Assembly (NCBI GenBank): GCA_036172315.1
Contig: JASFBC010000139.1
Location: forward strand, 1,728 to 65,727
Length of the DNA stretch: 64,000 nucleotides
Source: Anaerolineae bacterium
GTDB taxonomy: Bacteria; Chloroflexota; Anaerolineae; B4-G1; DUEL01
Reading direction: 5' to 3'
Shown piece by piece: positions 1,330-36,782 of the stretch; positions within the stretch are counted from its first letter, which is position 1; each line of letters begins with the position of its first letter. The notes under the pieces are model-generated. The model searched no databases, was not told where the DNA came from, and saw nothing but the letters and a program-made list of their open reading frames with translations. Both the position numbers and the translations under genes were made by a program.

Positions 1330-1375
1330 CCGCTTCCTTCTCGGGAACCAAGTAGCGCAAGATTTACGACTCTTT

Positions 1376-1403
1376 TTGCGAAAAGGCAGAATGGTGGTAT
1401 AAT
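1376..1403 (+). promoter_or_regulatory. Candidate sigma-70 promoter for uppS-cdsA (TTGCGA, 16 nt, TATAAT)
   Basis: TTGCGA at 1376-1381 and TATAAT at 1398-1403, about 75 nt upstream of the uppS ATG. Confidence 0.35.
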
Positions 1404-3529: not shown

Positions 3530-4546
3530 ATGCCGGAGGAAATCATCACCATAGAACGGCACATCCTGGAGCAGGAGCGGGCCTATCCGGAGGCCACCGG
3601 CGTCTTCACCAGCCTCCTTTATGACATCGCGCTGGCGGCCAAAATCATCGCCCGCGAAACTTCCCGCGCCGGCCTGGTCCAGATTCTTGGTCTGGCGGGC
3701 AAGATCAACGTCCAGGGCGAAGCCCAGATGAAACTGGACGTTTTCGCCAACCAGACCATCATCCGTATGAACTCCTATACGGGCCGGTTGGCCGTGATGG
3801 CCTCCGAAGAGGAGCCGGACATTATCCCCATCCCCGAGGGCTATCCCACGGGCCGCTACGTTCTGGTCTTTGACCCCCTGGATGGCTCATCCAACATTGA
3901 CGTGAACGCCAGTATCGGCACGATTTTTGGCATTTACCGTCGCCGCACTCCCGCCGGGCCGGGAACGGTGGAGGATTGCCTTCAGCCGGGCCGAGACCTG
4001 GCGGCAGCCGGCTACATCATCTATGGCTCCAGCACGATGATGGTCTACACGACCGGCAATGGGGTGCATGGTTTCACCCTGGACCCAGGGGTGGGGGAAT
4101 TCCTGCTCTCCCACCCGAATATCCGCGTCCCGGCGGAGCCCAAATACTACAGCGTCAATCAGGGCAATGAGAAATACTGGAGCGAGGGTGTACGGCGGTT
4201 TACCCGCTGGCTCCAGGGGATGGACGAGGAGTCCCCTCGCCGGCCGCTCTCTGGACGCTACATCGGCTCCCTGGTTGCCGACTTTCACCGCAACTTACTG
4301 GAAGGCGGAATTTTCTACTACCCGCTGGATTATAAAGACCCCGGGAAACCCAAAGGGAAACTGCGTCTCCTTTATGAGGCCGCCCCGCTGGCCTGCATTG
4401 CCGAACACGCCGGAGGGTACGCTTCGGATGGGCAACGCCCCATCCTGGACATCGTCCCTCAAACCCTTCATCAAAGGACGGCGCTCTTTATCGGCAACCG
4501 GGAACTGGTGGAGATGGCGGAACGTTTTATCGCTCGCTATGGATGA
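3530..4546 (+). CDS. fbp: Fructose-1,6-bisphosphatase class I
   Basis: FBPase class I metal-binding region ([26 protein letters not shown]). 338 aa. Confidence 0.9.
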
Positions 4547-4720: not shown

Positions 4721-6097
4721 ATGGAAGAAATTGTCCCGATAACAGAAGAAGAAACTCGTCTCTCCCGACCGGATGAAGCCCCGCGCGAGATTGTTCCGGG
4801 CGTGCCGGCCGACATCCTGGAGATGGGGGTGTTGGAGGAGTGGACGCTTGCGGACCTGCGGGAGTTAGCCCGAAAGATGGGGGTCTCCGGCTACAGCCGG
4901 CTGAAGAAAGAGGACCTGATCCTGCGCATCCTCCAGGCGAAAGCGGAGCGGGAAGGGCTGACTTTCCGGGGAGGCGTGCTGGAGATTCTGCCCGAGGAGG
5001 GGGTGGGCTTCCTGCGGGGGCCCAATTATCTCCCCGGTCCAGAAGATGTCTACGTCTCTCCGTCCCAGATTCGGCGCTTCGGCCTGCGCAACGGTGATCT
5101 GGTCATCGGCCAGGTCCGGCCGCCCAAGGAGACGGAGCGGTGGTATAGCCTGCTGCGGGTGGAGACGGTCAACGGGATGGACCCGGAACAGGCCAAATTG
5201 CGCCCCCGCTTTGAGAAACTGACCCCCATCTTCCCGACCCACCGGCTCATCATTGAGACGGACCGGCACAACCTGACCACCCGGTTACTCAGCCTCATCG
5301 CGCCCATCGGTAAAGGGCAGCGGGGCCTCATCGTCTCGCCGCCAAAAGCCGGGAAGACGACCGTCCTCAAACACATCGCCAACGGCATCACTGCCAACCA
5401 TCCGGAGGCCCATCTGATGGTTGTCCTCATCGGAGAGCGGCCGGAGGAGGTGACCGATATGGACCGGTCGGTGGAGGCGGAGGTCATCAGTTCCACCTTT
5501 GATGAACCGGTCCAGAATCACACCAAAGTGGCCGAGATGGCATTGGAGCGGGCCAAACGGCTGGTGGAGTGCAAAAAGGATGTGGTCATCCTGCTGGATA
5601 GCATCACCCGGCTGGCACGGGCGTACAACCTGGTCGTCCAGCCCAGCGGACGCACTCTCTCCGGTGGCCTGGACCCGGCCGCCCTCTACCCGCCCAAGAG
5701 TTTCTTCGGCGCGGCCCGCAACCTGGAAGAGGGCGGCAGCCTCACCATCATCGCCACCTGTCTGGTGGACACCGGCAGCCGGATGGACGATATGATTTAT
5801 GAGGAGTTCAAGGGGACCGGAAATATGGAACTCCACCTCAGCCGGCGGCTGCAGGAACGGCGCATCTTCCCCGCCTTTGACATTGAGCGGTCGGGCACCC
5901 GCCGGGAGGAGTTGCTCCTGGATCCGGATACGCTGCAGAAGGTCTGGCTGATGCGCAAGATGATCGCCCAGATGGTAGCCCCGCCGCCGGCCGGCGCCGG
6001 GTACGACCTGACGACGGTCACCGAGTCGGTGCTGCAGCACCTGGCCCGCACGCGCAACAATCGGGAATTCCTGGATACGCTGAAAGAAGCCATGTAG
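4721..6097 (+). CDS. rho: Transcription termination factor Rho (with ~40-aa N-terminal extension)
   Basis: Rho N-terminal and OB-fold regions, Walker [17 protein letters not shown], and the C-terminal RecA-like domain. 458 aa. Confidence 0.93.
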
Positions 6098-6112
6098 CGC
6101 TGTAGCACAAGA

Positions 6113-6877
6113 TTAATCTTGGGCTACGGTTTCCAGCCACTCCTGCACCGCGCTTGCCACCCGGTCTGGCTTCTCCAGCATCACCATGTGACCGGCTCCC
6201 TCTACCGGGATCCAGCGCGCGCCGGGAATGCGTTCCGCCAGCCACTGCCCAAACTTCGGCGGCGTCATCCGGTCTTCTGAGCCGGTGATCACCAGCGTCG
6301 GCGCGGTGATCTCCCCCACTCGCTCCCGGACATCAAAGCGGTCGCATGCGGCGAAATCCCCCCACACGACCTGAGGGTTTACGCGCGCCATCATCCGGCG
6401 GCCCCGGGCGACCATTGCCGGGTCGGCTTCCGGGCCCCAGGCCCATTCGGTGATGAGGGCCACCGTTCCCCGCGCGTCCTGCAGAATCCCCTCCAGGATG
6501 ACAGGCGCCACCCGTAAGCGCGCGCCAGTGCCCACCAGCACCAATCCGGCAACCCGCGCGGGAGCCAGCAGGGCCGCCATCTGGGCAATAGCGCCTCCCA
6601 TGGAATGCCCCACCAGCACTCCGCGCGCGACCCCTGTGGCATCCATAAAGCGGATGACGTCGGTGGCGTAGTCCTCTATCCGCTCCCGGCCCGGTCCCTC
6701 CGACCGCCCGTGTCCGGGCAGGTCTATGGCGTAGACGGTGGCACCGGGCATGCGGCGCAGTGCGGCCGGCCAGTGGAGGTGATTCCCGCCCGCCCCGTGG
6801 ATCAGGATCAGGGCAGGCCCTCCTCGCCCGCTAACGGTGTAGAAAAGGTGCTGTTCTCCTATCTGAGCAAAAGGCAT
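6113..6877 (-). CDS. Alpha/beta-fold hydrolase
   Basis: HGAGGN..GHSMGG nucleophile-elbow motif. The start is chosen at MPFAQIGEQ (GGAGGA SD 5 nt upstream); the ORF track extends to 6985. Confidence 0.75.
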
Positions 6878-9895: not shown

Positions 9896-10345
9896 ATGCT
9901 GAAGGAGTTCAAAGAGTTCGCCCTGCGGGGAAACGTCTTGGATATGGCCATTGGCATTATTATTGGCGCCGCCTTCGGCAGCGTCGTCTCATCTCTGGTT
10001 AAAGATATTCTGATGCCGCCTCTTGGCTTCCTTTTGAGCAACGTAGACTTCTCCAATCTCTTTATCAGTCTGAAGGGCCATTATGCTACTCTGGCGGAGG
10101 CCCAGGCGGCGGGCGCGCCGACCATCAACTACGGCATCTTCATCAATACGGCATTGAACTTTATTGTCGTGGTAGCAGCGCTCTTTTTCTTCATTGTCCG
10201 TCCGGTGAATCGCTGGCGGCGGACCCGAGAGGTCCCTCCCGCCGCGCCGACAACGAAGGAGTGTCCGTATTGCTTCTCCACCATCCCGCTGAAGGCCACC
10301 CGCTGCCCGTATTGTACATCCCATCTGGAGGGGAAAACCGGTTAA
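9896..10345 (+). CDS. mscL: Large-conductance mechanosensitive channel MscL with a C-terminal CxxC..CxxC zinc-ribbon-like tail
   Basis: MLKEFKEFALRGNVLDMAIGIIIGAAFG is the canonical MscL N-terminus. An AGGAGG SD precedes the ATG. The C-terminus is KECPYCFSTIPLKATRCPYCTSH. Confidence 0.88.
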   Translation: MLKEFKEFALRGNVLDMAIGIIIGAAFGSVVSSLVKDILMPPLGFLLSNVDFSNLFISLKGHYATLAEAQAAGAPTINYGIFINTALNFIVVVAALFFFIVRPVNRWRRTREVPPAAPTTKECPYCFSTIPLKATRCPYCTSHLEGKTG

Positions 10346-11461
10346 TGGACGAATTACGAAGCCGTCTTCTCGCCCTGCAGGCCCGACTCCAGGACATCCG
10401 GAGGCGGCTTTGACTTGGACGGCAAAGAGCAGGAAATCGCCCGCCTGGAGAAACGGGCCGCCGCACCGGACTTCTGGGATGACCTCCAGGCCGCTCAGCG
10501 GGTCATGCAGCGCCTGGCCGACCTGCGCGACGAGCGGGAGCCCTGGGTCGCCCTGGAACAGCGCGTCGCGGATGCCCTGGAACTGGCCGCATTGGGCGAC
10601 GAAAGCCTGATAGAAGAACTCCGGAACGAAGCGGAGGAGGTAGAAAACCGACTGGAAAAACTGGAGTTTCGCCTTCTCTTCTCCGGCCCCTACGACCGGA
10701 ATGACGCCTTCCTGGCCATCCACGCCGGGGCCGGCGGCACCGACGCCCAGGACTTCGCCGAGATGTTGCTGCGGATGTACCTGCGCTGGGCCGAATCCCG
10801 GGGCTACCAGACCGACCTGGTGGACCGGCTCTATGGAGAGGAAGCCGGCATCAAACGGGCCACCGTCGCCGTCTCCGGGCCCTACGCCTACGGCTACCTG
10901 CGAGCCGAGCGGGGCGTCCACCGGCTGGTCCGCCTCTCCCCCTTTGACGCCGCCCATCGCCGCCACACCTCCTTCGCCCTGGTGGAGGTCTGGCCGGACC
11001 TGCCGGAAACGGCCAGCATTCACATCAATCCGGACGATCTGAAGATTGAGACTTTTCGCTCCTCTAGCGCAGGCGGCCAGCATATGCAGAAAAACGAGAC
11101 CGCCGTCCGCATCACCCACCTCCCCACCGGCATCGTCGTCACCTGCCAGAACGAGCGCTCCCAGACCCAGAACCGGGAGACAGCCCTGCGGGTTCTGCGG
11201 GCCCGTCTCATAGAAATGGAGGAAGAAAAACGCCAGCGGGAACTGGCGGAAATCAAAGGCAAACACATTGAGGCGGCCTGGGGCAACCAGATTCGCTCCT
11301 ACATCCTCCACCCCTACCAACTGGTCAAGGACCACCGCACCGGCTACGAAACCGGCAACACTCAGGCCGTGCTGGACGGAGAACTGGACGCGTTTATGGA
11401 AGCGTACTTGAGGTCCACTCTCTGGGAAGGAGGAAACGGAGCATGGACGAACAACCGGTAG
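10345..11461 (+). CDS. prfB: Peptide chain release factor 2, requiring a programmed +1 frameshift at CTT TGA C (10408-10414)
   Basis: Frame 0 runs ATG(10345)..22 codons..CGG CTT TGA(10411), preceded by the internal SD GGAGG. The +1 frame continues DGKEQEIARLEKR... to 11461 with the GGQ motif (SSSAGGQHMQKNE). Confidence 0.9.
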
Positions 11462-11712
11462 AGGAACTGGTCGGACAGGTCTCCCACTGGTACGGTAAAA
11501 TCAGCGTGATGGGCGTGACGCTCACCGGACGGCTGGCCGTGGGCGATACCATCCGCGTGCGCGGCCACACCACCGACTTCACCCAGCGGGTCACCTCTAT
11601 GCAGGCCTGGCATCAGGACATCGCCGAGGCCAGCCCGGGCGACCAGATCGGCATCCGCGCCGCCTTCCGCGCCCGCCCCGGCGACCGGGTCTATAAGATA
11701 ACCAGCGGGTAG
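11443..11712 (+). CDS. Small beta-barrel protein, EF-Tu domain-2-like (hypothetical, 89 aa)
   Basis: VMGVTLTGRLAVGDTIRVRGHTTDFTQ...GDQIGI resembles the EF-Tu domain-2 fold. Overlaps the prfB end by 19 nt. Its 3' ~115 nt are tandemly duplicated downstream. Confidence 0.55.
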   Translation: MDEQPVEELVGQVSHWYGKISVMGVTLTGRLAVGDTIRVRGHTTDFTQRVTSMQAWHQDIAEASPGDQIGIRAAFRARPGDRVYKITSG

Positions 11713-11730
11713 CGCAAGATTTATCTTGCC

Positions 11731-11872
11731 CTTCACCCAGTGGGTCACCTCTATGCAGGCCTGGCACCAGGAGATCGCCGAGGCCGGCCCGGGCGACCCG
11801 ATCGGCATCCGCGCTGCCTCCCGCGTCCGCCCCGGCGATCGGACCTCAGTGCAAGATCGATCTTGTGCCTGC
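11731..11872 (+). repeat. Diverged tandem duplicate (~90% identical) of the 3' end of the upstream 89-aa gene, including its terminal palindrome
   Basis: Nucleotide alignment 11575-11725 vs 11731-11872. Both copies end with a CAAGATnnATCTTG palindrome. Confidence 0.75.
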
Positions 11873-11899
11873 TTCTGCGCGATTCTGTGGCCCTGCGAC

Positions 11900-13417
11900 A
11901 TGCGCCCTTCAGACCTTCTGTGTCGGGTTCGGGAATTCATCCGCCGCCACGACCTGCTGAGCGTCGGCGACGGGGTAGTGGTGGGTGTCTCCGGTGGGCC
12001 GGACTCCCTCTGCCTGCTCCACCTGTTGCTGCGCCTGCGGGAGGAGTACCGGCTGCAACTCCACGTAGCCCACCTCCACCACGGCGCGCGCGGCGAGGAT
12101 GCCGACGCGGATGCCGCCTTCGTTGCCGACCTGGCCCGGGAATGGGGCCTCCCCGCTACCCTGGCGCGAGAGGACGTCCCTGCCATTGCCCGCGCCCACA
12201 AACTGGCCTTTGAGGAAGCCGCCCGCCGCGTCCGCTACGCCTTCCTGGCCCACGTCGCCGGAGAGGTCGGCGCCGCGAAGGTCGCAGTGGGCCACCACGC
12301 CGATGACCAGGCCGAGACGGTGCTTATGCATTTCCTGCGTGGCGCAGGGCTGGCCGGACTGCGGGGGATGCGCCCGGCGACCCCCCTCTCCGAGTACCGT
12401 CTCCTGCCCCAAACCGGCCCCTTCTCCCTTCCGGACCGTCTGCCCCTGCTCATCCGCCCGCTCCTGGACATCCCGCGCGCGGAGATAGAAGCGTACTGTG
12501 CCGAACAGGGCCTCACGTCCCGCTTTGACCGCTCCAACCTGGATACGACCTACTTCCGCAACCGGCTGCGGCACGAACTCCTGCCCCTTCTGGAGACCTA
12601 TAACCCCAACATCCGTCGCCGCCTCTGCCACACGGCGGAGGTCGTCGCCGCCGACTACGAACTCCTGGCCCAGATGCGGGACTGGGCCTGGGATCGGATC
12701 GTGCGGGAGGAATCGGAGAAAGCCATCGTCCTGGACCGGGCCGCATGGCAGGCTCAGCCGCTATCGCTCCAGCGGGCGCTCATCCGGGAGGCAGCCTACC
12801 GGCTGCGCCCCTCCCTGCGGGATGTGGACTTCGTCCACGTAGAGGCGGCGGTGCAGGTGGCCCGTGCGGGTACGACCGGCGCGCAGGCCACCCTCCCCGG
12901 CGGCCTGGCCCTCACCGTTGGCTACGACACACTCACCATCGCCGACGCCGGGTACGAGCCGCCGCCCCCAGGCCCGACCCTCCCTCCGGGGACGGAGATA
13001 CCGGTGGCCCTGCCAGGCCGGACCCCCCTGCCGGGCGGCGAGTGGGTCCTGGAGGCAGAACTTCCGGAGACCTGGACTCTGGCAGAGGTGAGGGGCAACC
13101 CGGATCGGTGGACAGCGTACCTGGATGCGGAGAGCCTGCAGGGGACGCCGGTCCTGCGCACCCGTCGCCTCGGCGACCGCTTCCGGCCCCAGGGCATGGG
13201 CGGCCATGCCCCCCCGCTGACGGACTGGATGATCAACGCCCGGGTCCCCCGCCCGGCGCGCAATTCCCTGCCGCTTTTGGTCTCTGGCGACGGGGAGATC
13301 CTCTGGGTCTGCGGCTGGCGCGTCTCGGAGACCGCCGCCGTCCGCCCCGAGACCCGCCGGGTGGTCCGATTCCGGTTCCGTCGGGAGAGAGGCACAGGAA
13401 AGACGGGCGTTGAGTAA
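11900..13417 (+). CDS. tilS: tRNA(Ile)-lysidine synthetase
   Basis: PP-loop SGGPDS (VVVGVSGGPDSLCLL) and TilS C-terminal domain. The upstream 58 codons of the ORF-track ORF are the duplicated fragment, so the start is taken at the ATG of MRPSDLL. Confidence 0.85.
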   Translation: MRPSDLLCRVREFIRRHDLLSVGDGVVVGVSGGPDSLCLLHLLLRLREEYRLQLHVAHLHHGARGEDADADAAFVADLAREWGLPATLAREDVPAIARAHKLAFEEAARRVRYAFLAHVAGEVGAAKVAVGHHADDQAETVLMHFLRGAGLAGLRGMRPATPLSEYRLLPQTGPFSLPDRLPLLIRPLLDIPRAEIEAYCAEQGLTSRFDRSNLDTTYFRNRLRHELLPLLETYNPNIRRRLCHTAEVVAADYELLAQMRDWAWDRIVREESEKAIVLDRAAWQAQPLSLQRALIREAAYRLRPSLRDVDFVHVEAAVQVARAGTTGAQATLPGGLALTVGYDTLTIADAGYEPPPPGPTLPPGTEIPVALPGRTPLPGGEWVLEAELPETWTLAEVRGNPDRWTAYLDAESLQGTPVLRTRRLGDRFRPQGMGGHAPPLTDWMINARVPRPARNSLPLLVSGDGEILWVCGWRVSETAAVRPETRRVVRFRFRRERGTGKTGVE

Positions 13418-15254: not shown

Positions 15255-15273
15255 CGCTCTGCGACTCTGCGCC

Positions 15274-16176
15274 ATGCTCCCTGCTCCCTGCGACCTGGGC
15301 ATCGTCATCGTCAACTACAACACCCGCGACCTGCTGCGGGCGTGTCTGCGCACCGTCTACGCCAGCCGGGGGGATTTCACCTTTCAGGTCTGCGTGGTGG
15401 ATAACGGCTCCGCCGATGGAAGCGGGGAAATGGTGACGGCGGAGTTCCCCCAGGCCCACTCCATTCTCAACCCGGACAATCGGGGGTATCCGGCGGCCAA
15501 CAACCAGGGACTGCGCCTGCTGGGGTTCCCGGACGGCGCCGACGCGCCTCGCTTCGCCCTGCTCCTCAACCCGGATACCGAACTCCCTCCCGACGCGCTG
15601 GCGAAGATGCTGGCCTTTCTGGAGGCGCATCCGGAGGCCGGCGTTGCCGGCCCCAAACTGGTGCGGCAGGACGGCTCCCTGGACCTGGCCTGTCGTCGTT
15701 CCTTCCCCTCGCCGGAGGTCTCTTTCTACCGGTTCTCCGGCCTGGCGCGCCTCTTTCCCCGCAGCCGCCGCTTTGGGCGCTACAACCTCACCTACCTGGA
15801 CCCGGACGAGATGGCGGAGGTGGACGCCGTGGTGGGGGCTTTTATGATGCTGCGCCGGGAGGCCATCGCCCAAGTTGGCCTGCTGGATGAGGGGTTCTTT
15901 ATGTACGGGGAAGACCTGGACTGGTGCTACCGCATCAAGGCGGCGGGCTGGAAAGTGTACTACAACCCGGAGGTAACGGTTCTCCACATCAAGCGGGCCG
16001 CCAGCATTCGCAACCCCCGCGCCCAGGTGGAGTTCTGGCGGGCGATGGATTACTTCTACCGGAAACACTACGCTGCCCGCACCCCCTGGCCGCTCCACGT
16101 CCTGATTCTGGCAGCCATCCGGACCCGAACCCATCTGGAGCGGCTGCGCTGGCGGATAGCGGGGGTGAAGGTATAA
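15274..16176 (+). CDS. Glycosyltransferase family 2
   Basis: IVIVNYNTRDLL, VVDNGSADGS and NRGYPAANNQG (DXD-containing GT-A fold). Paralog of the gene at 60585-61511. Confidence 0.85.
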   Translation: MLPAPCDLGIVIVNYNTRDLLRACLRTVYASRGDFTFQVCVVDNGSADGSGEMVTAEFPQAHSILNPDNRGYPAANNQGLRLLGFPDGADAPRFALLLNPDTELPPDALAKMLAFLEAHPEAGVAGPKLVRQDGSLDLACRRSFPSPEVSFYRFSGLARLFPRSRRFGRYNLTYLDPDEMAEVDAVVGAFMMLRREAIAQVGLLDEGFFMYGEDLDWCYRIKAAGWKVYYNPEVTVLHIKRAASIRNPRAQVEFWRAMDYFYRKHYAARTPWPLHVLILAAIRTRTHLERLRWRIAGVKV

Positions 16177-16309
16177 GGTATGATGGGAGCGAGAACCCAG
16201 CCGGGTTTGACGATGCGGCTTTCGTGTGTTATATTGTAATACAGGCCGCCAGGCCTGCACGCAGGCTAACAGCCTGCGCCACGGATTCATCCTGTATGCA
16301 GGATGTGAA

Positions 16310-17722
16310 ATGAAAAAACGTCGCGCACAAATTTTCTTTATCGGAACCCTGTTTCTGACCGATGCGCTGATGGCCGGGGCGGCCTTTTACGGCGCCTACT
16401 GGCTGCGCGCGACGCTCCCCTTTCCGGCGGAGGCGGTCACCCTGGCCGCGCCCCCCGCCTACGCCCCGGTGATGCTGGCCCATGTCGCAGCGGTCCTCAT
16501 CGCTCTGGCCTTCAACCGTCTCTACATCCTGGCCCGTAGCCCCTCCCGGGTGGACGAGTTCTATCAGACCATCGGGGCCGCCACGACAGGCACCATCACC
16601 GGCATCGCCCTCTCCTACTTCCTCTTCAAAAACACACCCCTGGAGGTGGATTACCCCCGGGCGATGATGATATATGCCTGGATGCTGACCATTCTCCTGG
16701 TGACGGTGGGGCGGCTGGCCCACGGGCGGCTGCGGGCGGCCCTCCAGGCCCGGGGCTGGGGACGGGACCGGGTGCTGGTGGTGGGCACCGGGGACGTGGC
16801 GCGGATGATTCTCCACAAGATTCTGGGCAACCCCGGCCTAGGTTATCAGGTGGTGGGGACGGTAGAGGTAGAGGGTTACCCAACGGTAACCCTGCCGGCC
16901 CCCATTCTGGGCAATGCCCGCGACTTGGGCAACCTGATTGAACAGCACCAGGTGGATGAAGTCATCATCGCGCTGCCGGAGGCAACCCACCAGGAGATTC
17001 TCACCCTTATCTCCGAGTGCGAGCGGGGCAAGGCGACCATCAAGGTTTTCCCCGACGTGTTCCAGATCATCGCTGGACCGATGGGCATCGGCGACCTGGG
17101 CGGGCTCCCTCTGCTGACGGTGCGCGAGGTCGCCCTGCGGGGCTGGCGGCGGGCCGCCAAACGGTTGATGGACATCGTCGGCGCAACGGTGGGGCTCATT
17201 CTCCTCTCCCCGCTGATGCTCCTCACCGCCATCCTTATCAAACTGGATTCCCCCGGCCCCGCCTTCTATGTCCAGGAACGGATGGGGCTGGACGCCCGCC
17301 CCTTCCTGATGTTCAAGTTCCGCTCCATGCGGCAGGACGCAGAGGCCCGGGGGCCGGGCTGGACCCGCCCCGGCGACCCCCGGGTGACTCGCCTGGGCAG
17401 TACTCTGCGCCGACTGAACGTGGACGAGTTGCCCCAGTTGATCAACGTCCTGCTGGGGGAGATGAGCCTGGTAGGGCCTCGCCCGGAGCGGCCCGTCTAC
17501 GTGGCCCAGTTCCGCCGCTCCATTCCCCGCTACATGGACCGGCACCGGGAGAAGGCCGGCATGACCGGCTGGGCCCAGGTAAACGGCCTGCGGGGGGATA
17601 CCTCCATCGCCGAGCGGACCAAGTACGACCTCTGGTACATTGAGAACTGGTCGCTCCTGCTGGACATCAAAATTCTCCTGCGCACGCTGGTCAACATCTT
17701 CCGCTCCCCCAACGCATATTGA
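16310..17722 (+). CDS. Undecaprenyl-phosphate sugar phosphotransferase (exopolysaccharide-priming, WbaP/EpsL-like)
   Basis: N-terminal TM region plus the C-terminal bacterial sugar transferase domain (FKFRSM..PRVTRLGSTLRRLNVDELPQLINVL.GEMSLVGPRPE). Confidence 0.85.
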   Translation: MKKRRAQIFFIGTLFLTDALMAGAAFYGAYWLRATLPFPAEAVTLAAPPAYAPVMLAHVAAVLIALAFNRLYILARSPSRVDEFYQTIGAATTGTITGIALSYFLFKNTPLEVDYPRAMMIYAWMLTILLVTVGRLAHGRLRAALQARGWGRDRVLVVGTGDVARMILHKILGNPGLGYQVVGTVEVEGYPTVTLPAPILGNARDLGNLIEQHQVDEVIIALPEATHQEILTLISECERGKATIKVFPDVFQIIAGPMGIGDLGGLPLLTVREVALRGWRRAAKRLMDIVGATVGLILLSPLMLLTAILIKLDSPGPAFYVQERMGLDARPFLMFKFRSMRQDAEARGPGWTRPGDPRVTRLGSTLRRLNVDELPQLINVLLGEMSLVGPRPERPVYVAQFRRSIPRYMDRHREKAGMTGWAQVNGLRGDTSIAERTKYDLWYIENWSLLLDIKILLRTLVNIFRSPNAY

Positions 17723-22531: not shown

Positions 22532-22556
22532 ATAGGGTCGGGCGGAGGTAGGGGCA
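22532..22556 (-). terminator. Stem-loop GGGGCAGGG-gcaa-CCCTGCCCC between the LysM gene stop and the aor start
   Basis: Perfect 9-bp GC stem directly 3' of the LysM-protein stop. Confidence 0.4.
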
Positions 22557-22572
22557 GGGGCAAGCCCTGCCC

Positions 22573-23715
22573 CTACGGTGTCGGCGTGGGCGCCGGTGTC
22601 AGCGGCGATTCCAGCCAGAGGAAGCGGCGGATGATTCCCTCATCCGACGCAGTGGTGAAGGCACCGCTGCGGGTCTCCCGGACTACCCGGACCTCCCATC
22701 GGAACTCCCGCGCCTGGGAGCCGGAAGGCGGGAAAAGGTCGGCGGGGAGCCGGTAGGCCGTCGTCCGGGTGTGCACCCGGAGGATGGGCATCCCGGGCCG
22801 GGTGATCCGCAGTTCGTACCACTCATTGGGGCGCAGGACGGCAACGGAGGCCCACTGGAGCACGATGACCGCATCCGGCCCACCGAAGACGGCCCCGTCC
22901 GGCGGATACAGGAGGGGCGGCGACGGATAGGGCGGGATGGGCGTCGGCGTGGCATAGGGGTTGGGGGTGGGCGTCGGCGTGGGCATCGGTGTCCCCAACG
23001 GGATGATCAGCGGCTGGTTCACGCGGATGGCGTCGGAGCCGGCGGGAATCTCCGGATTGGCGGCCCGGATCAGGGAGAGGGTGACGCTGTATTTCTGCGC
23101 GATGGAGAGGAGGGTCTCCCCCGGCGCGACGACGTGGATGATGTAATCGCCCGGCGTGGGAGTCGGCGTGACCGTCCCCGGAATAGGCGAAGGGGTGGGA
23201 GTGGGGCGGGCCGGCGGGATGAGCAGGACCTGCCCGATTTGCAGCGCGTCCGGGTTGATGCCCGGGTTCAGGGCGATGATTTCCTCCACGGTGGTGTCGT
23301 ACCGGACAGCGATGCCCGAGAGGGTATCGTTCGGTTGGACCTGGTGAGCCCGGGGAGGCAGCGGAGTGGGTGTGGGCGTCTCAGTCGGCGTGGCGGTAGG
23401 GGTAGACGTGGCCGCCGGCGTGGCCGTCCGGGTCGGGGCGACGGTCGGGGTGGGGAAAGGAGCCCGCTGGGGAAAGAAGAGCGGCCCCAGAAGCCAGTAG
23501 GCCGTCCCCAGAACCAGTGCGGCGACAGCGAACGCCGCCACCCAGAAGAGCCGGTGAGAATAGCGGGCCGGCGCGCGGGTCACCAGCGACTCCGCCTCCG
23601 GCCTCTCTGCCAGGGACGCGCCACAGATGATACAGGTAGTGGCTTGTGCCGACACCTTTGTCCCACAGGCCGGACAGATTCTGTTGGGTAAATCAGTGGG
23701 TGGTAAATGGGTCAT
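22573..23715 (-). CDS. LysM-domain protein with an N-terminal zinc ribbon and TM anchor, Pro/Thr-rich linkers
   Basis: CPACG..CIICG zinc ribbon, a TM helix, and two LysM domains (DTLSGIAVRY.., ETLLSIAQKY..). Confidence 0.8.
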   Translation of the reverse strand: MTHLPPTDLPNRICPACGTKVSAQATTCIICGASLAERPEAESLVTRAPARYSHRLFWVAAFAVAALVLGTAYWLLGPLFFPQRAPFPTPTVAPTRTATPAATSTPTATPTETPTPTPLPPRAHQVQPNDTLSGIAVRYDTTVEEIIALNPGINPDALQIGQVLLIPPARPTPTPSPIPGTVTPTPTPGDYIIHVVAPGETLLSIAQKYSVTLSLIRAANPEIPAGSDAIRVNQPLIIPLGTPMPTPTPTPNPYATPTPIPPYPSPPLLYPPDGAVFGGPDAVIVLQWASVAVLRPNEWYELRITRPGMPILRVHTRTTAYRLPADLFPPSGSQAREFRWEVRVVRETRSGAFTTASDEGIIRRFLWLESPLTPAPTPTP

Positions 23716-36647: not shown

Positions 36648-36782
36648 ACTCGTTCCCTGTGGGGTAAATTGTAGCACAGAACTCCATCCCCGCAAGATGC
36701 CACTTGCGCCCCCGCCGAATCCCGATACAATATGAATGACGGACGACAGACCACAGGCCACAGGCGACAGTTCGGAGGGAAC

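Follow-up and report, generated by a model that had tools for sequence, protein, structure and literature searches.

A GTAG-tagged palindrome of the Anaerolineae, probably a REP family, ends both copies of a small tandem duplication upstream of tilS

Our analysis of a 64-kb stretch of DNA from an Anaerolineae bacterium (hereafter, the window) indicates that a palindrome recurring behind stop codons is probably a GTAG-tagged REP that is common in the Anaerolineae and may spread by means of a RAYT transposase, and that a 154-bp unit ending in this element was duplicated in tandem upstream of tilS, where its second copy has subsequently decayed. An earlier note on this DNA had considered the palindrome to be a terminator, a protein-binding site or a REP, and it is the last of these options that the data favor: the element occurs scattered outside genes and close to stop codons, has a direction and a GTAG head, and covaries in its stem. 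Since the survey of GTAG REPs by Di Nocera et al. (2013, PMC3733652) includes no Anaerolinea, and full-text searches of the literature returned no paper linking the Anaerolineae with REP or RAYT, the palindrome apparently constitutes an undescribed family of the GTAG-tagged REP superfamily.

Results

Copies of the palindrome in the window

In the window, which has a G+C content of 64%, the sequence CAAGATNNATCTTG occurs exactly at positions 6108, 11715 and 11852, against an expectation of 0.05 sites per window, and none of 100 dinucleotide-preserving shuffles reached three occurrences. The related sequence GTAGCRCAAG is found at 1352, 6102 and 11709, on the forward strand in all three cases. 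Altogether, the window harbors four copies of the REP in 64 kb (Table 1), three of which carry the GTAG head even though the head was not part of the window search. The exact occurrences at 11715 and 11852 lie behind the two copies of a gene-tail repeat, just as the earlier note had described, and the tails of these two REPs differ from each other by small indels. Likewise, the motif reported behind the rho stop was recovered there, in a copy (6102-6127) that begins 4 nt past the stop codon.

The motif that had been claimed to follow the frr stop is present as a degenerate copy, comprising the whole element with small insertions (GTAGCGCAAGATTTA-cgac-TCTT-ttt-GCG), but it begins 22 nt past the TGA of frr (1327-1329; Pfam RRF), so that its TAG is not the frr stop codon. 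Upstream of uppS, the arm remnant TTGCGA of this copy supplies the -35 hexamer in a good promoter-like site, TTGCGA-16-TG-TATAAT. The variant that had been placed in a promoter region at 36690 fared less well: it presents two mismatches to the core and, taken alone, is indistinguishable from chance. Across the whole window, we obtained no Rfam match at gathering score, and a tRNA scan returned no genes.

Table 1. Features of the window discussed in the text
Feature	Coordinates	Strand	Evidence or remarks
REP copy 1: GTAG head, then CGCAAGAT-TT-ATCTTGCC	11709..11734	+	RNA hairpin -12.3 kcal/mol, z -3.3
REP copy 2, degenerate: head TCAG not GTAG, loop CG, tail TGCCTG	11846..11871	+	Hairpin -7.7 kcal/mol, z -1.1 (weak)
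rho-hydrolase REP, heads on both strands (GTAGCACAAGATTAATCTTGGGCTAC)	6102..6127	+	Hairpin -16.3 kcal/mol, z -5.5
Extra partial head GTAGCGCT at rho stop	6094..6101	+	Absent from H13_138 orthologue
Degenerate REP, 22 nt past frr stop	1352..1380	+	Insertions cgac and ttt in loop/3' arm
Possible eroded REP remnant: GTAGCACAgaac, then CGCAAGATGCCACTTGCG (uncertain)	36671..36708	+	Hairpin no better than shuffles, z -0.97
EF-Tu-domain-2-like small gene, 89 aa	11443..11712	+	Pfam GTP_EFTU_D2, 30.7 bits
Repeat copy 1, within functional small gene	11577..11688	+	Repeat search; 2 derived changes vs outgroups
Repeat copy 2, decaying gene-tail fragment in small gene-tilS spacer	11731..11842	+	92% identical to copy 1
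tilS	11900..13417	+	Pfam ATP_bind_3, TilS, TilS_C; N-terminus aligned with L001, L005

A dispersed family of elements in the Anaerolineae

Scanning one genome per species (GTDB representatives) with the pattern GTAGCRCAAGATNNATCTTG yielded at least 117 stretches containing it. Among the matches listed, 113 belong to the Chloroflexota, mostly to the Anaerolineae, and four lie outside this phylum, against our own estimate, under uniform base composition, of approximately 35 matches expected by chance over all phyla. Contrary to what the earlier note had suggested, the palindrome is not species-specific, with the same 20-mer occurring in about 36 Chloroflexota species among the matches listed. 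Carriers include Villigracilis, Thermoflexus, CFX2 and CFX11, and the element is found in at least 31 separate 8-kb blocks of the MAG H13_138 (DAOTWL01) and in at least 18 blocks of the MAG S1_Bin_Bin_9_sub_1.

Alignment of 137 oriented copies resolved an element of roughly 23-26 nt with the consensus (Y)GTAGCGCAAGAT-TT-ATCTTGCGC(T/C)AC, modeled here as GTAGCGCAAGATTTATCTTGCGC, and a stem of 8-12 bp. Upstream of it, the flanking sequence is random except for a pyrimidine at position -1, and the sequence past position 26 is random as well. Outside the window, the GTAG head owes part of its conservation to the search itself, since the genome scan required it. Positions 21-23, left free by the pattern, are predominantly C (88%), G (84%) and C (61%), and positions 24-26 tend to (T/C)AC. 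The two-base loop reads TT in 67 copies, TC in 28, TA in 27 and AA in none, and the element thus has a direction despite its palindromic core. In about 74% of the copies, a single side bears the head, while about one quarter end in C(T/C)AC and hence carry heads on both strands, forming a perfect palindrome of 26 nt. The stem has kept its base pairing: the combination at positions 6 and 21 is G-C in 120 copies, A-T in nine, G-T in five and unpaired combinations in four, and the inner stem triplets are complementary in 146 of the 152 copies retrieved with a relaxed pattern. No T enrichment was detected at positions 27-40 of the 137 aligned copies.

Several arrangements known from published GTAG REPs recur here. 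Tandem partial copies are visible in the loci examined, and head-to-head dimers occur in other genomes (e.g., at loci L015, L021, L047, L063 and L082). In H13_138, the REP is nested within a composite repeat of about 95 nt that carries no gene, and an insertion of about 240 nt bounded by REP-like sequences separates locus L024 from L089. Other kinds of repeat were discarded: the copies have no regular spacers, as a CRISPR array would; their density is too low, and the element too directional, for a DNA uptake sequence; and the random flanks, with neither terminal inverted repeats nor target-site duplications beyond the palindrome itself, dismiss a MITE or IS end.

Association of the element with gene 3' ends

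To judge by crude ORF-based gene calls on the 117 loci and the window, which place 33 of 140 heads inside called ORFs, the element lies mostly at gene 3' ends and in sense orientation, with a sense-strand gene ending just before the head in 73 cases and the head located beside a gene start in 28. The distance from stop codon to head has a median of 1 nt, and the element often supplies the stop codon of the neighboring gene, through its head TAG in 26 of the 73 gene-end cases and through its loop TAA in nine. Independently of gene calls, the frame closed by the head TAG extends upstream through 100 or more codons without a stop in 43 of 140 heads, versus 11 of 140 in a control frame. Flanking genes are arranged in tandem at 46 sites, convergently at 19 and divergently at 10.

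The copy behind rho illustrates this association. The stop codon of rho occupies positions 6095-6097, and the loop TAA and right arm of the REP encode the end (V-A-Q-D-stop; ...EWLETVAQD*) of a convergent gene for an alpha/beta hydrolase. The post-rho REP is an old one: six loci with Rho proteins 94-96% identical (L138-L143) carry it at the orthologous site, and a seventh (L144; 84% identity), in which the hydrolase ends in ...EWLEAL*, lacks it. In H13_138 (L064), it is a perfect 26-nt palindrome, and its TAG is the rho stop codon. The fold of this copy appears to have been maintained, because one relative (L142) presents a compensatory double change in the stem, from CAAGAT/ATCTTG to CACGAT/ATCGTG, and another has a G.T wobble for which pairing is confined to the + strand. 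Maintenance of the fold fits a transposase substrate and an RNA hairpin alike.

Wherever copies are transcribed, they would place a hairpin of 8-12 bp at the stop codon or just past it. Such a 3' RNA hairpin may stabilize the mRNA, and a role as a barrier to 3' decay would be plausible. It is unlikely to act as a strong intrinsic terminator because it lacks a T-run; the terminator contemplated in the earlier note is, in its canonical form, further disfavored by terminator scans at the frr, rho and small gene-tilS loci, which found none. Given that tilS lies behind two REP copies with no promoter-like site between, read-through is expected at this locus.

These observations also bear on whether the palindrome might be mainly a host-selected signal at the 3' end of RNA, either an exonuclease barrier or an Anaerolineae-specific termination or attenuation signal, instead of a mobile REP. 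Its sense orientation behind genes, at a median of 1 nt from the stop, would be expected of such a signal, as would the fact that different species have kept it behind rho, at orthologous positions, with one compensatory change and a wobble restricted to the + strand, the recurrence of one sequence in about 36 species among the matches listed, and the fact that no RAYT flanked by the studied REP was found in the sampled clade (see below). An identical 20-mer at unrelated loci, however, implies copying over independent origin, and partial copies in tandem, dimers joined head to head and copies embedded in larger repeats argue in the same direction. Presence is also variable, with the element absent before tilS in three relatives (L001, L005 and L007) and after rho in L144; the absence of a T-run speaks against a classical intrinsic terminator; and an essential gene, tilS, is located behind two copies without an intervening promoter-like site. 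We therefore regard a host-selected RNA signal as unlikely.

A related reading, to which we assign a rather low probability, is that the palindrome is not, or is no longer, a selfish REP and has been domesticated as a signal across the class Anaerolineae. Its sequence is kept in dozens of species and orthologous sites are held with compensatory changes; it is oriented with transcription, abuts or supplies stop codons and encodes a V-A-Q-D-stop tail in one frame; and no flanking transposase was found in the sampled clade, all of which domestication would accommodate. The unusual conservation across genera and at orthologous sites is explained by a host-selected function as well as by a selfish element. 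A domesticated signal could flag the 3' ends of transcripts or link the end of translation with the fate of the RNA, and it would do so in a phylum whose terminators are poorly known.

RAYT transposases and the mobility of the element

Under the preferred interpretation of the palindrome as a REP, a transposase would be expected to act on it. One of the REP-bearing loci (L082) encodes a RAYT-type Y1 transposase (Pfam Y1_Tnp) whose relatives exceed 1,400 in number, many bearing the name RayT in their source. RAYT genes are present in the Anaerolineales, including a genome that carries the studied REP, and in four of the five genomes examined they lie between genes for a rarA-like AAA ATPase and a histidine phosphatase. 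The MAG JBGANO combines a RAYT at this rarA/histidine phosphatase site with the studied REP. The sampled RAYT genes (L082 and L127-L137), notably those of L082, L128, L134, L135 and L137, are flanked by doublets of another GTAG REP, GTAGCCGACGTTCTCTAACGTCGG, and the CAAGAT..ATCTTG core was not found in RAYT loci L127-L137, which represent one RAYT clade. Searching all ORFs of the window and of approximately 800 kb of REP-bearing loci with a RAYT query (phmmer) revealed a Y1 transposase only in L082. Linkage between the studied REP and a RAYT was not encountered among the sampled RAYTs, and we infer mobilization in trans by analogy: like other GTAG REPs, the element would spread as single-stranded DNA through the action of a RAYT-type Y1 (HUH) transposase encoded elsewhere.

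A tandem duplication between the small gene and tilS

The small EF-Tu-domain-2-like gene upstream of tilS has 230 detected homologues at the protein level, mostly in the Anaerolineae, and the homologues of Rho are likewise nearly all from this class. Its TAG stop codon (11710-11712) is the TAG in the head of REP copy 1. The earlier note had reported that the end of this gene is duplicated, and we confirmed a direct repeat of 112 nt with 92% identity and a start-to-start distance of 154 nt; the last 24 nt of the gene, in contrast to that description, fall outside the repeat. In the second copy, 5 nt stand in place of the 22 nt at 11689-11710, a net loss of 17 nt. The tetranucleotide CTTC is found at both unit starts (11577 and 11731) and again after copy 2 (11872). 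The join at 11730/11731 lies 2 nt beyond the stem of REP copy 1, whose final 4 nt (CTTC) double as the first 4 nt of repeat copy 2. As had been stated, the duplicate is in frame with a tilS ORF (11726-13417), but homologues place the start of the gene at the ATG at 11900, which is likely its true start. An N-terminally extended TilS initiating at the TTG at 11726 was accordingly dismissed, since the starts of the homologues correspond to ATG 11900.

Comparison with relatives situates the duplication in time. Relatives with small proteins 92%, 88% and 79% identical present the same gene order, prfB being followed by the small gene and then by tilS in each of the three groups examined. The check for a single copy suggested in the earlier note gave a uniform answer, with one gene tail and no REP before tilS in each group (L001, L005 and L007). 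The spacers between the small gene and tilS measure 180 nt (of unrelated sequence), 46 nt and 0 nt in the three groups. Because all three carry a single tail and no REP, the duplication arose within the source lineage.

Using the relatives as outgroups, we polarized nine differences between the two copies. Copy 2 has accumulated seven derived substitutions, five non-synonymous and two synonymous, together with a GT>AC change at its end, versus two derived substitutions in copy 1. At the site where L001 and L005 read GGTG, the two copies have the same derived GATC, and copy 2 therefore came from the small gene of the source lineage itself.

These results indicate a succession of three events. 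The small gene first acquired a single REP at its TAG stop codon, in the source lineage only, as the comparison with relatives shows. A unit of 154 bp, in which 132 nt from the end of the gene precede the REP, was then duplicated in tandem, most likely because replication slipped or switched templates at a stalled hairpin. Since then, copy 2 has decayed as non-coding spacer before tilS, as its derived changes show. Slippage or template switching from one 4-nt microhomology to another, with the hairpin at the stall point, would be expected to leave this layout, and the hairpin may in that case have mediated the duplication. The CTTC microhomology spans only 4 nt. Searches of JGI metagenomes returned no matches to the duplication join and none to the intermediate in which the gene end is followed by a REP without duplication.

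Regarding the arrival of the REP, the presence of GTAG at the stop of the small gene in L001 and L007 fits the idea that the body of the element inserts 3' of a pre-existing GTAG stop context. This is not general: when two filled sites (L078 and L039) are set against an empty one (L073), the empty site has no GTAG and the REP replaces the C-terminus of the gene.

Copy 2 could also have been produced by transposition, with a Y1 transposase cutting at one hairpin, rejoining at another and carrying the flank along. Each copy does end in a REP, clusters of REPs reiterated with flanking DNA have already been described (Di Nocera et al. 2013, PMC3733652), and an insertion of about 240 nt with REP-like borders distinguishes L024 from L089. 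Nevertheless, the left end of the unit (11577) is inside the gene and has neither hairpin nor GTAG, the two units simply follow each other head to tail, with CTTC at either boundary, and the sampled RAYTs include none flanked by the studied REP. Overall, this route appears very unlikely, and duplication by slippage or template switching remains the favored account.

Discussion

The evidence presented above is best accommodated by a REP that has spread through the Anaerolineae and, in one lineage, come to lie at the end of a small tandem duplication. The protein-binding site considered in the earlier note would take the form of a double-stranded DNA site for a dimeric protein, be it a regulator or a nucleoid-associated or gyrase-like protein, as proposed for some E. 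coli BIMEs. A near-perfect palindrome, fully symmetric in about one quarter of the copies with CTAC at the far end, and AT-rich in a genome with 64% GC, would suit such a protein. The element is, however, strongly asymmetric, with a one-sided head in about 74% of the copies and a loop of TT in 67 and of AA in none; it sits at gene ends, not at promoters; and its stem tolerates G-T pairs, which fits a single-stranded fold, making a double-stranded site highly improbable. That the tandem arrangement is an assembly artefact joining two strain variants of the region is barely credible, for although the source is probably a metagenome-assembled genome, its exact proteins are not on record elsewhere and the join was not found in JGI metagenomes, the pattern of change in copy 2 is not that of a functional allele (five non-synonymous versus two synonymous changes, a lost gene end and a damaged REP head), and the sequence downstream of it continues directly into tilS, as in the relatives.

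The REP is a known kind of bacterial repeat, and no new kind of system is revealed here. Its definition nonetheless provides a REP family for the annotation of the Anaerolineae, a clade known mostly from metagenome bins, in which the element supplies stop codons, alters protein C-termini and, in one instance, provides a -35 box. Short repeats of this type break contigs during assembly, and the variable presence of the REP between close relatives may be of use in strain typing. For genome evolution, the region upstream of tilS is a tidy natural case in which a hairpin repeat is located at a short tandem duplication, here keeping apart two genes that, in two of the three groups of relatives, either overlap or have 46 nt between them.

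Among known systems, the studied element most closely resembles the GTAG REP superfamily (Di Nocera, De Gregorio & Rocco 2013, BMC Genomics 14:522), whose members include the REP/BIME of E. coli, the REPs of Pseudomonas, the SMAGs of S. maltophilia and GTAG-23 of T. roseum. As described by Di Nocera et al. (2013, PMC3733652), GTAG REPs fold into small stem-loops tagged by GTAG on one side, in which the stem spans 5-13 bp and the loop often has 2-4 nt; complementary variants of the stem occur, and the copies are located mainly between ORFs that are either unidirectional or convergent. They can be reiterated along with flanking DNA, some are located inside larger palindromes, and they have been reported in the Chloroflexi among other phyla, with Thermomicrobium roseum as the sole Chloroflexi example (Di Nocera et al. 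2013, PMC3733652). The studied element shares the 20-40 bp size class, the tetranucleotide (GTAG, or GTRG in the general definition) at one end, a stem of about 8-12 bp and a loop of 2-4 nt. It is likewise dispersed in at least tens of copies per genome with unrelated flanks, extragenic between unidirectional or convergent ORFs, and able to provide its TAG as a stop codon; it also has complementary stem variants, head-to-head dimers and clusters, and copies that are reiterated with their flank or nested in larger repeats. It departs from the superfamily in that about one quarter of its copies are tagged on both strands and in that a RAYT flanked by it was not found in the one clade sampled, and both its stem and loop sequence and its Anaerolineae host are absent from the published survey (PMC3733652).

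The REPIN-RAYT system (Bertels & Rainey 2011; Bertels et al. 2017) also combines GTAG-headed hairpin repeats with single-copy Y1 transposases in conserved positions, and the same clade contains comparable genes, namely the Anaerolineales RAYTs between rarA and histidine phosphatase genes with their REP doublets. Those RAYTs, in contrast, are flanked by another REP family, and, unlike the inverted doublets of REPINs, the copies in the window are singletons or, before tilS, a head-to-tail pair that stems from the duplication. With the subterminal hairpins of IS200/IS605, the element has in common a single-strand hairpin beside a conserved tetranucleotide and a strand-specific orientation, but it measures only about 26 nt, no transposase gene lies between copies, and no repeat of IS length was found. 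Like Rho-independent terminators, it forms a hairpin right after stop codons, often between convergent genes, yet it differs from them in its AT-rich mid-stem, the absence of a T-run, its random downstream sequence and the recurrence of an identical sequence at unrelated loci. Finally, in enterobacteria, Shyamala, Schneider & Ames reportedly described, in 1990, large tandem duplications arising by recombination between two REPs. The duplication upstream of tilS shares with them a join-point at a REP, but it differs in that its 154-bp unit contains a single REP and has its other end at a 4-nt microhomology inside a gene.

REP copies as gene ends and within longer repeats

Read in one frame, the GTAG-tagged REP translates to V-A-Q-D followed by a stop codon, and an alpha/beta hydrolase gene on the minus strand of the window takes its C-terminal V-A-Q-D tail and stop codon from the palindrome (6113-6127). 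Likewise, in two other genomes (loci L078 and L039) the REP gives the V-A-Q-D-stop end to a gene unrelated to the hydrolase; the orthologue of this gene at a locus without the REP (L073) terminates EAQPS*. A promoter-like site upstream of uppS has as its -35 hexamer what is left of the 3' arm of the degenerate REP copy after erosion. The 8-nt partial REP head GTAGCGCT that accompanies the rho REP is missing from the orthologue in the REP-rich MAG H13_138; at the rho stop of the window, a short stretch of the head has therefore been duplicated. In two MAGs (H13_138 and H71_738), the REP sits inside a longer repeat, itself an inverted repeat, to which no gene is attached.

Features of the window and of the comparison loci (L-numbers)
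Feature	Location	Description
Promoter-like site	window 1376-1403	upstream of uppS; TTGCGA, 16 nt, TG-TATAAT; 10/12 matches
Partial REP head	window 6094-6101	GTAGCGCT, directly ahead of rho REP
prfB	window 10261-11461	classical programmed +1 frameshift site
Tagged hairpins	window 22548-22576, 16866-16893, 16260-16283	GTAG- or GTGG-tagged, stems unlike the REP's; e.g. GTAGGGGCAGGGGCAAGCCCTGCCCCTAC
Short repeats	L001 (relative's prfB-tilS locus) 4275-4455; L144 (relative with 84% identical Rho) 2566-2760; window 11885-11899, 15255-15300	
REP-containing unit	H13_138: L011, L026, L043, L069, L071	roughly 95 nt; CCCAGAAAC...GTTTCTG surrounding REP
REP-containing longer repeat	H71_738: L119, L120, L124	GTGTAAA...TTTACAC
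RAYT gene	L082 4035-4700 (reverse complement)	RAYT-type Y1 transposase
RAYT gene	L128 1390-2140	RAYT-type Y1 transposase
RAYT gene	L134, L135, L137	RAYT-type Y1 transposase

Other repeats and the prfB-tilS region

The other tagged hairpins of the window may represent additional REP families of the same genome. Further short repeat families occupy intergenic regions of the relatives, and the types seen comprise cacgaagg/cctttgtg inverted repeats, gacgcagac repeats and CCTGCGAC-like tandem heptamers. The heptamers lie immediately 5' of tilS in the relatives, and ccctgcgac ahead of the tilS start in the window is a trace of them.

The genes prfB, the small EF-Tu-domain-2-like gene (230 homologues) and tilS form a conserved Anaerolineae trio. 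The prfB frameshift site (GGAGG, then CTT TGA C, at about 10399-10414) connects a 50-codon ORF with the main 348-codon ORF, and the 3' end of prfB shares 19 nt with the small gene (window 11443-11461), which overlaps or abuts tilS in relatives.

A RAYT gene and a second REP family in the Anaerolineales

In four of the five Anaerolineales genomes that were compared, a single-copy gene for a RAYT-type Y1 transposase, the enzyme associated with REPs, occupies a common position, with a gene for a rarA-like ATPase on one side and one for a histidine phosphatase on the other. The transposase gene is bordered on both sides by doublets that belong to a second family of GTAG REPs, GTAGCCGACGTTCTCTAACGTCGG. 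Together, the gene and these doublets look like a vertically inherited REPIN-RAYT system (REPINs being inverted REP doublets) outside the Proteobacteria.
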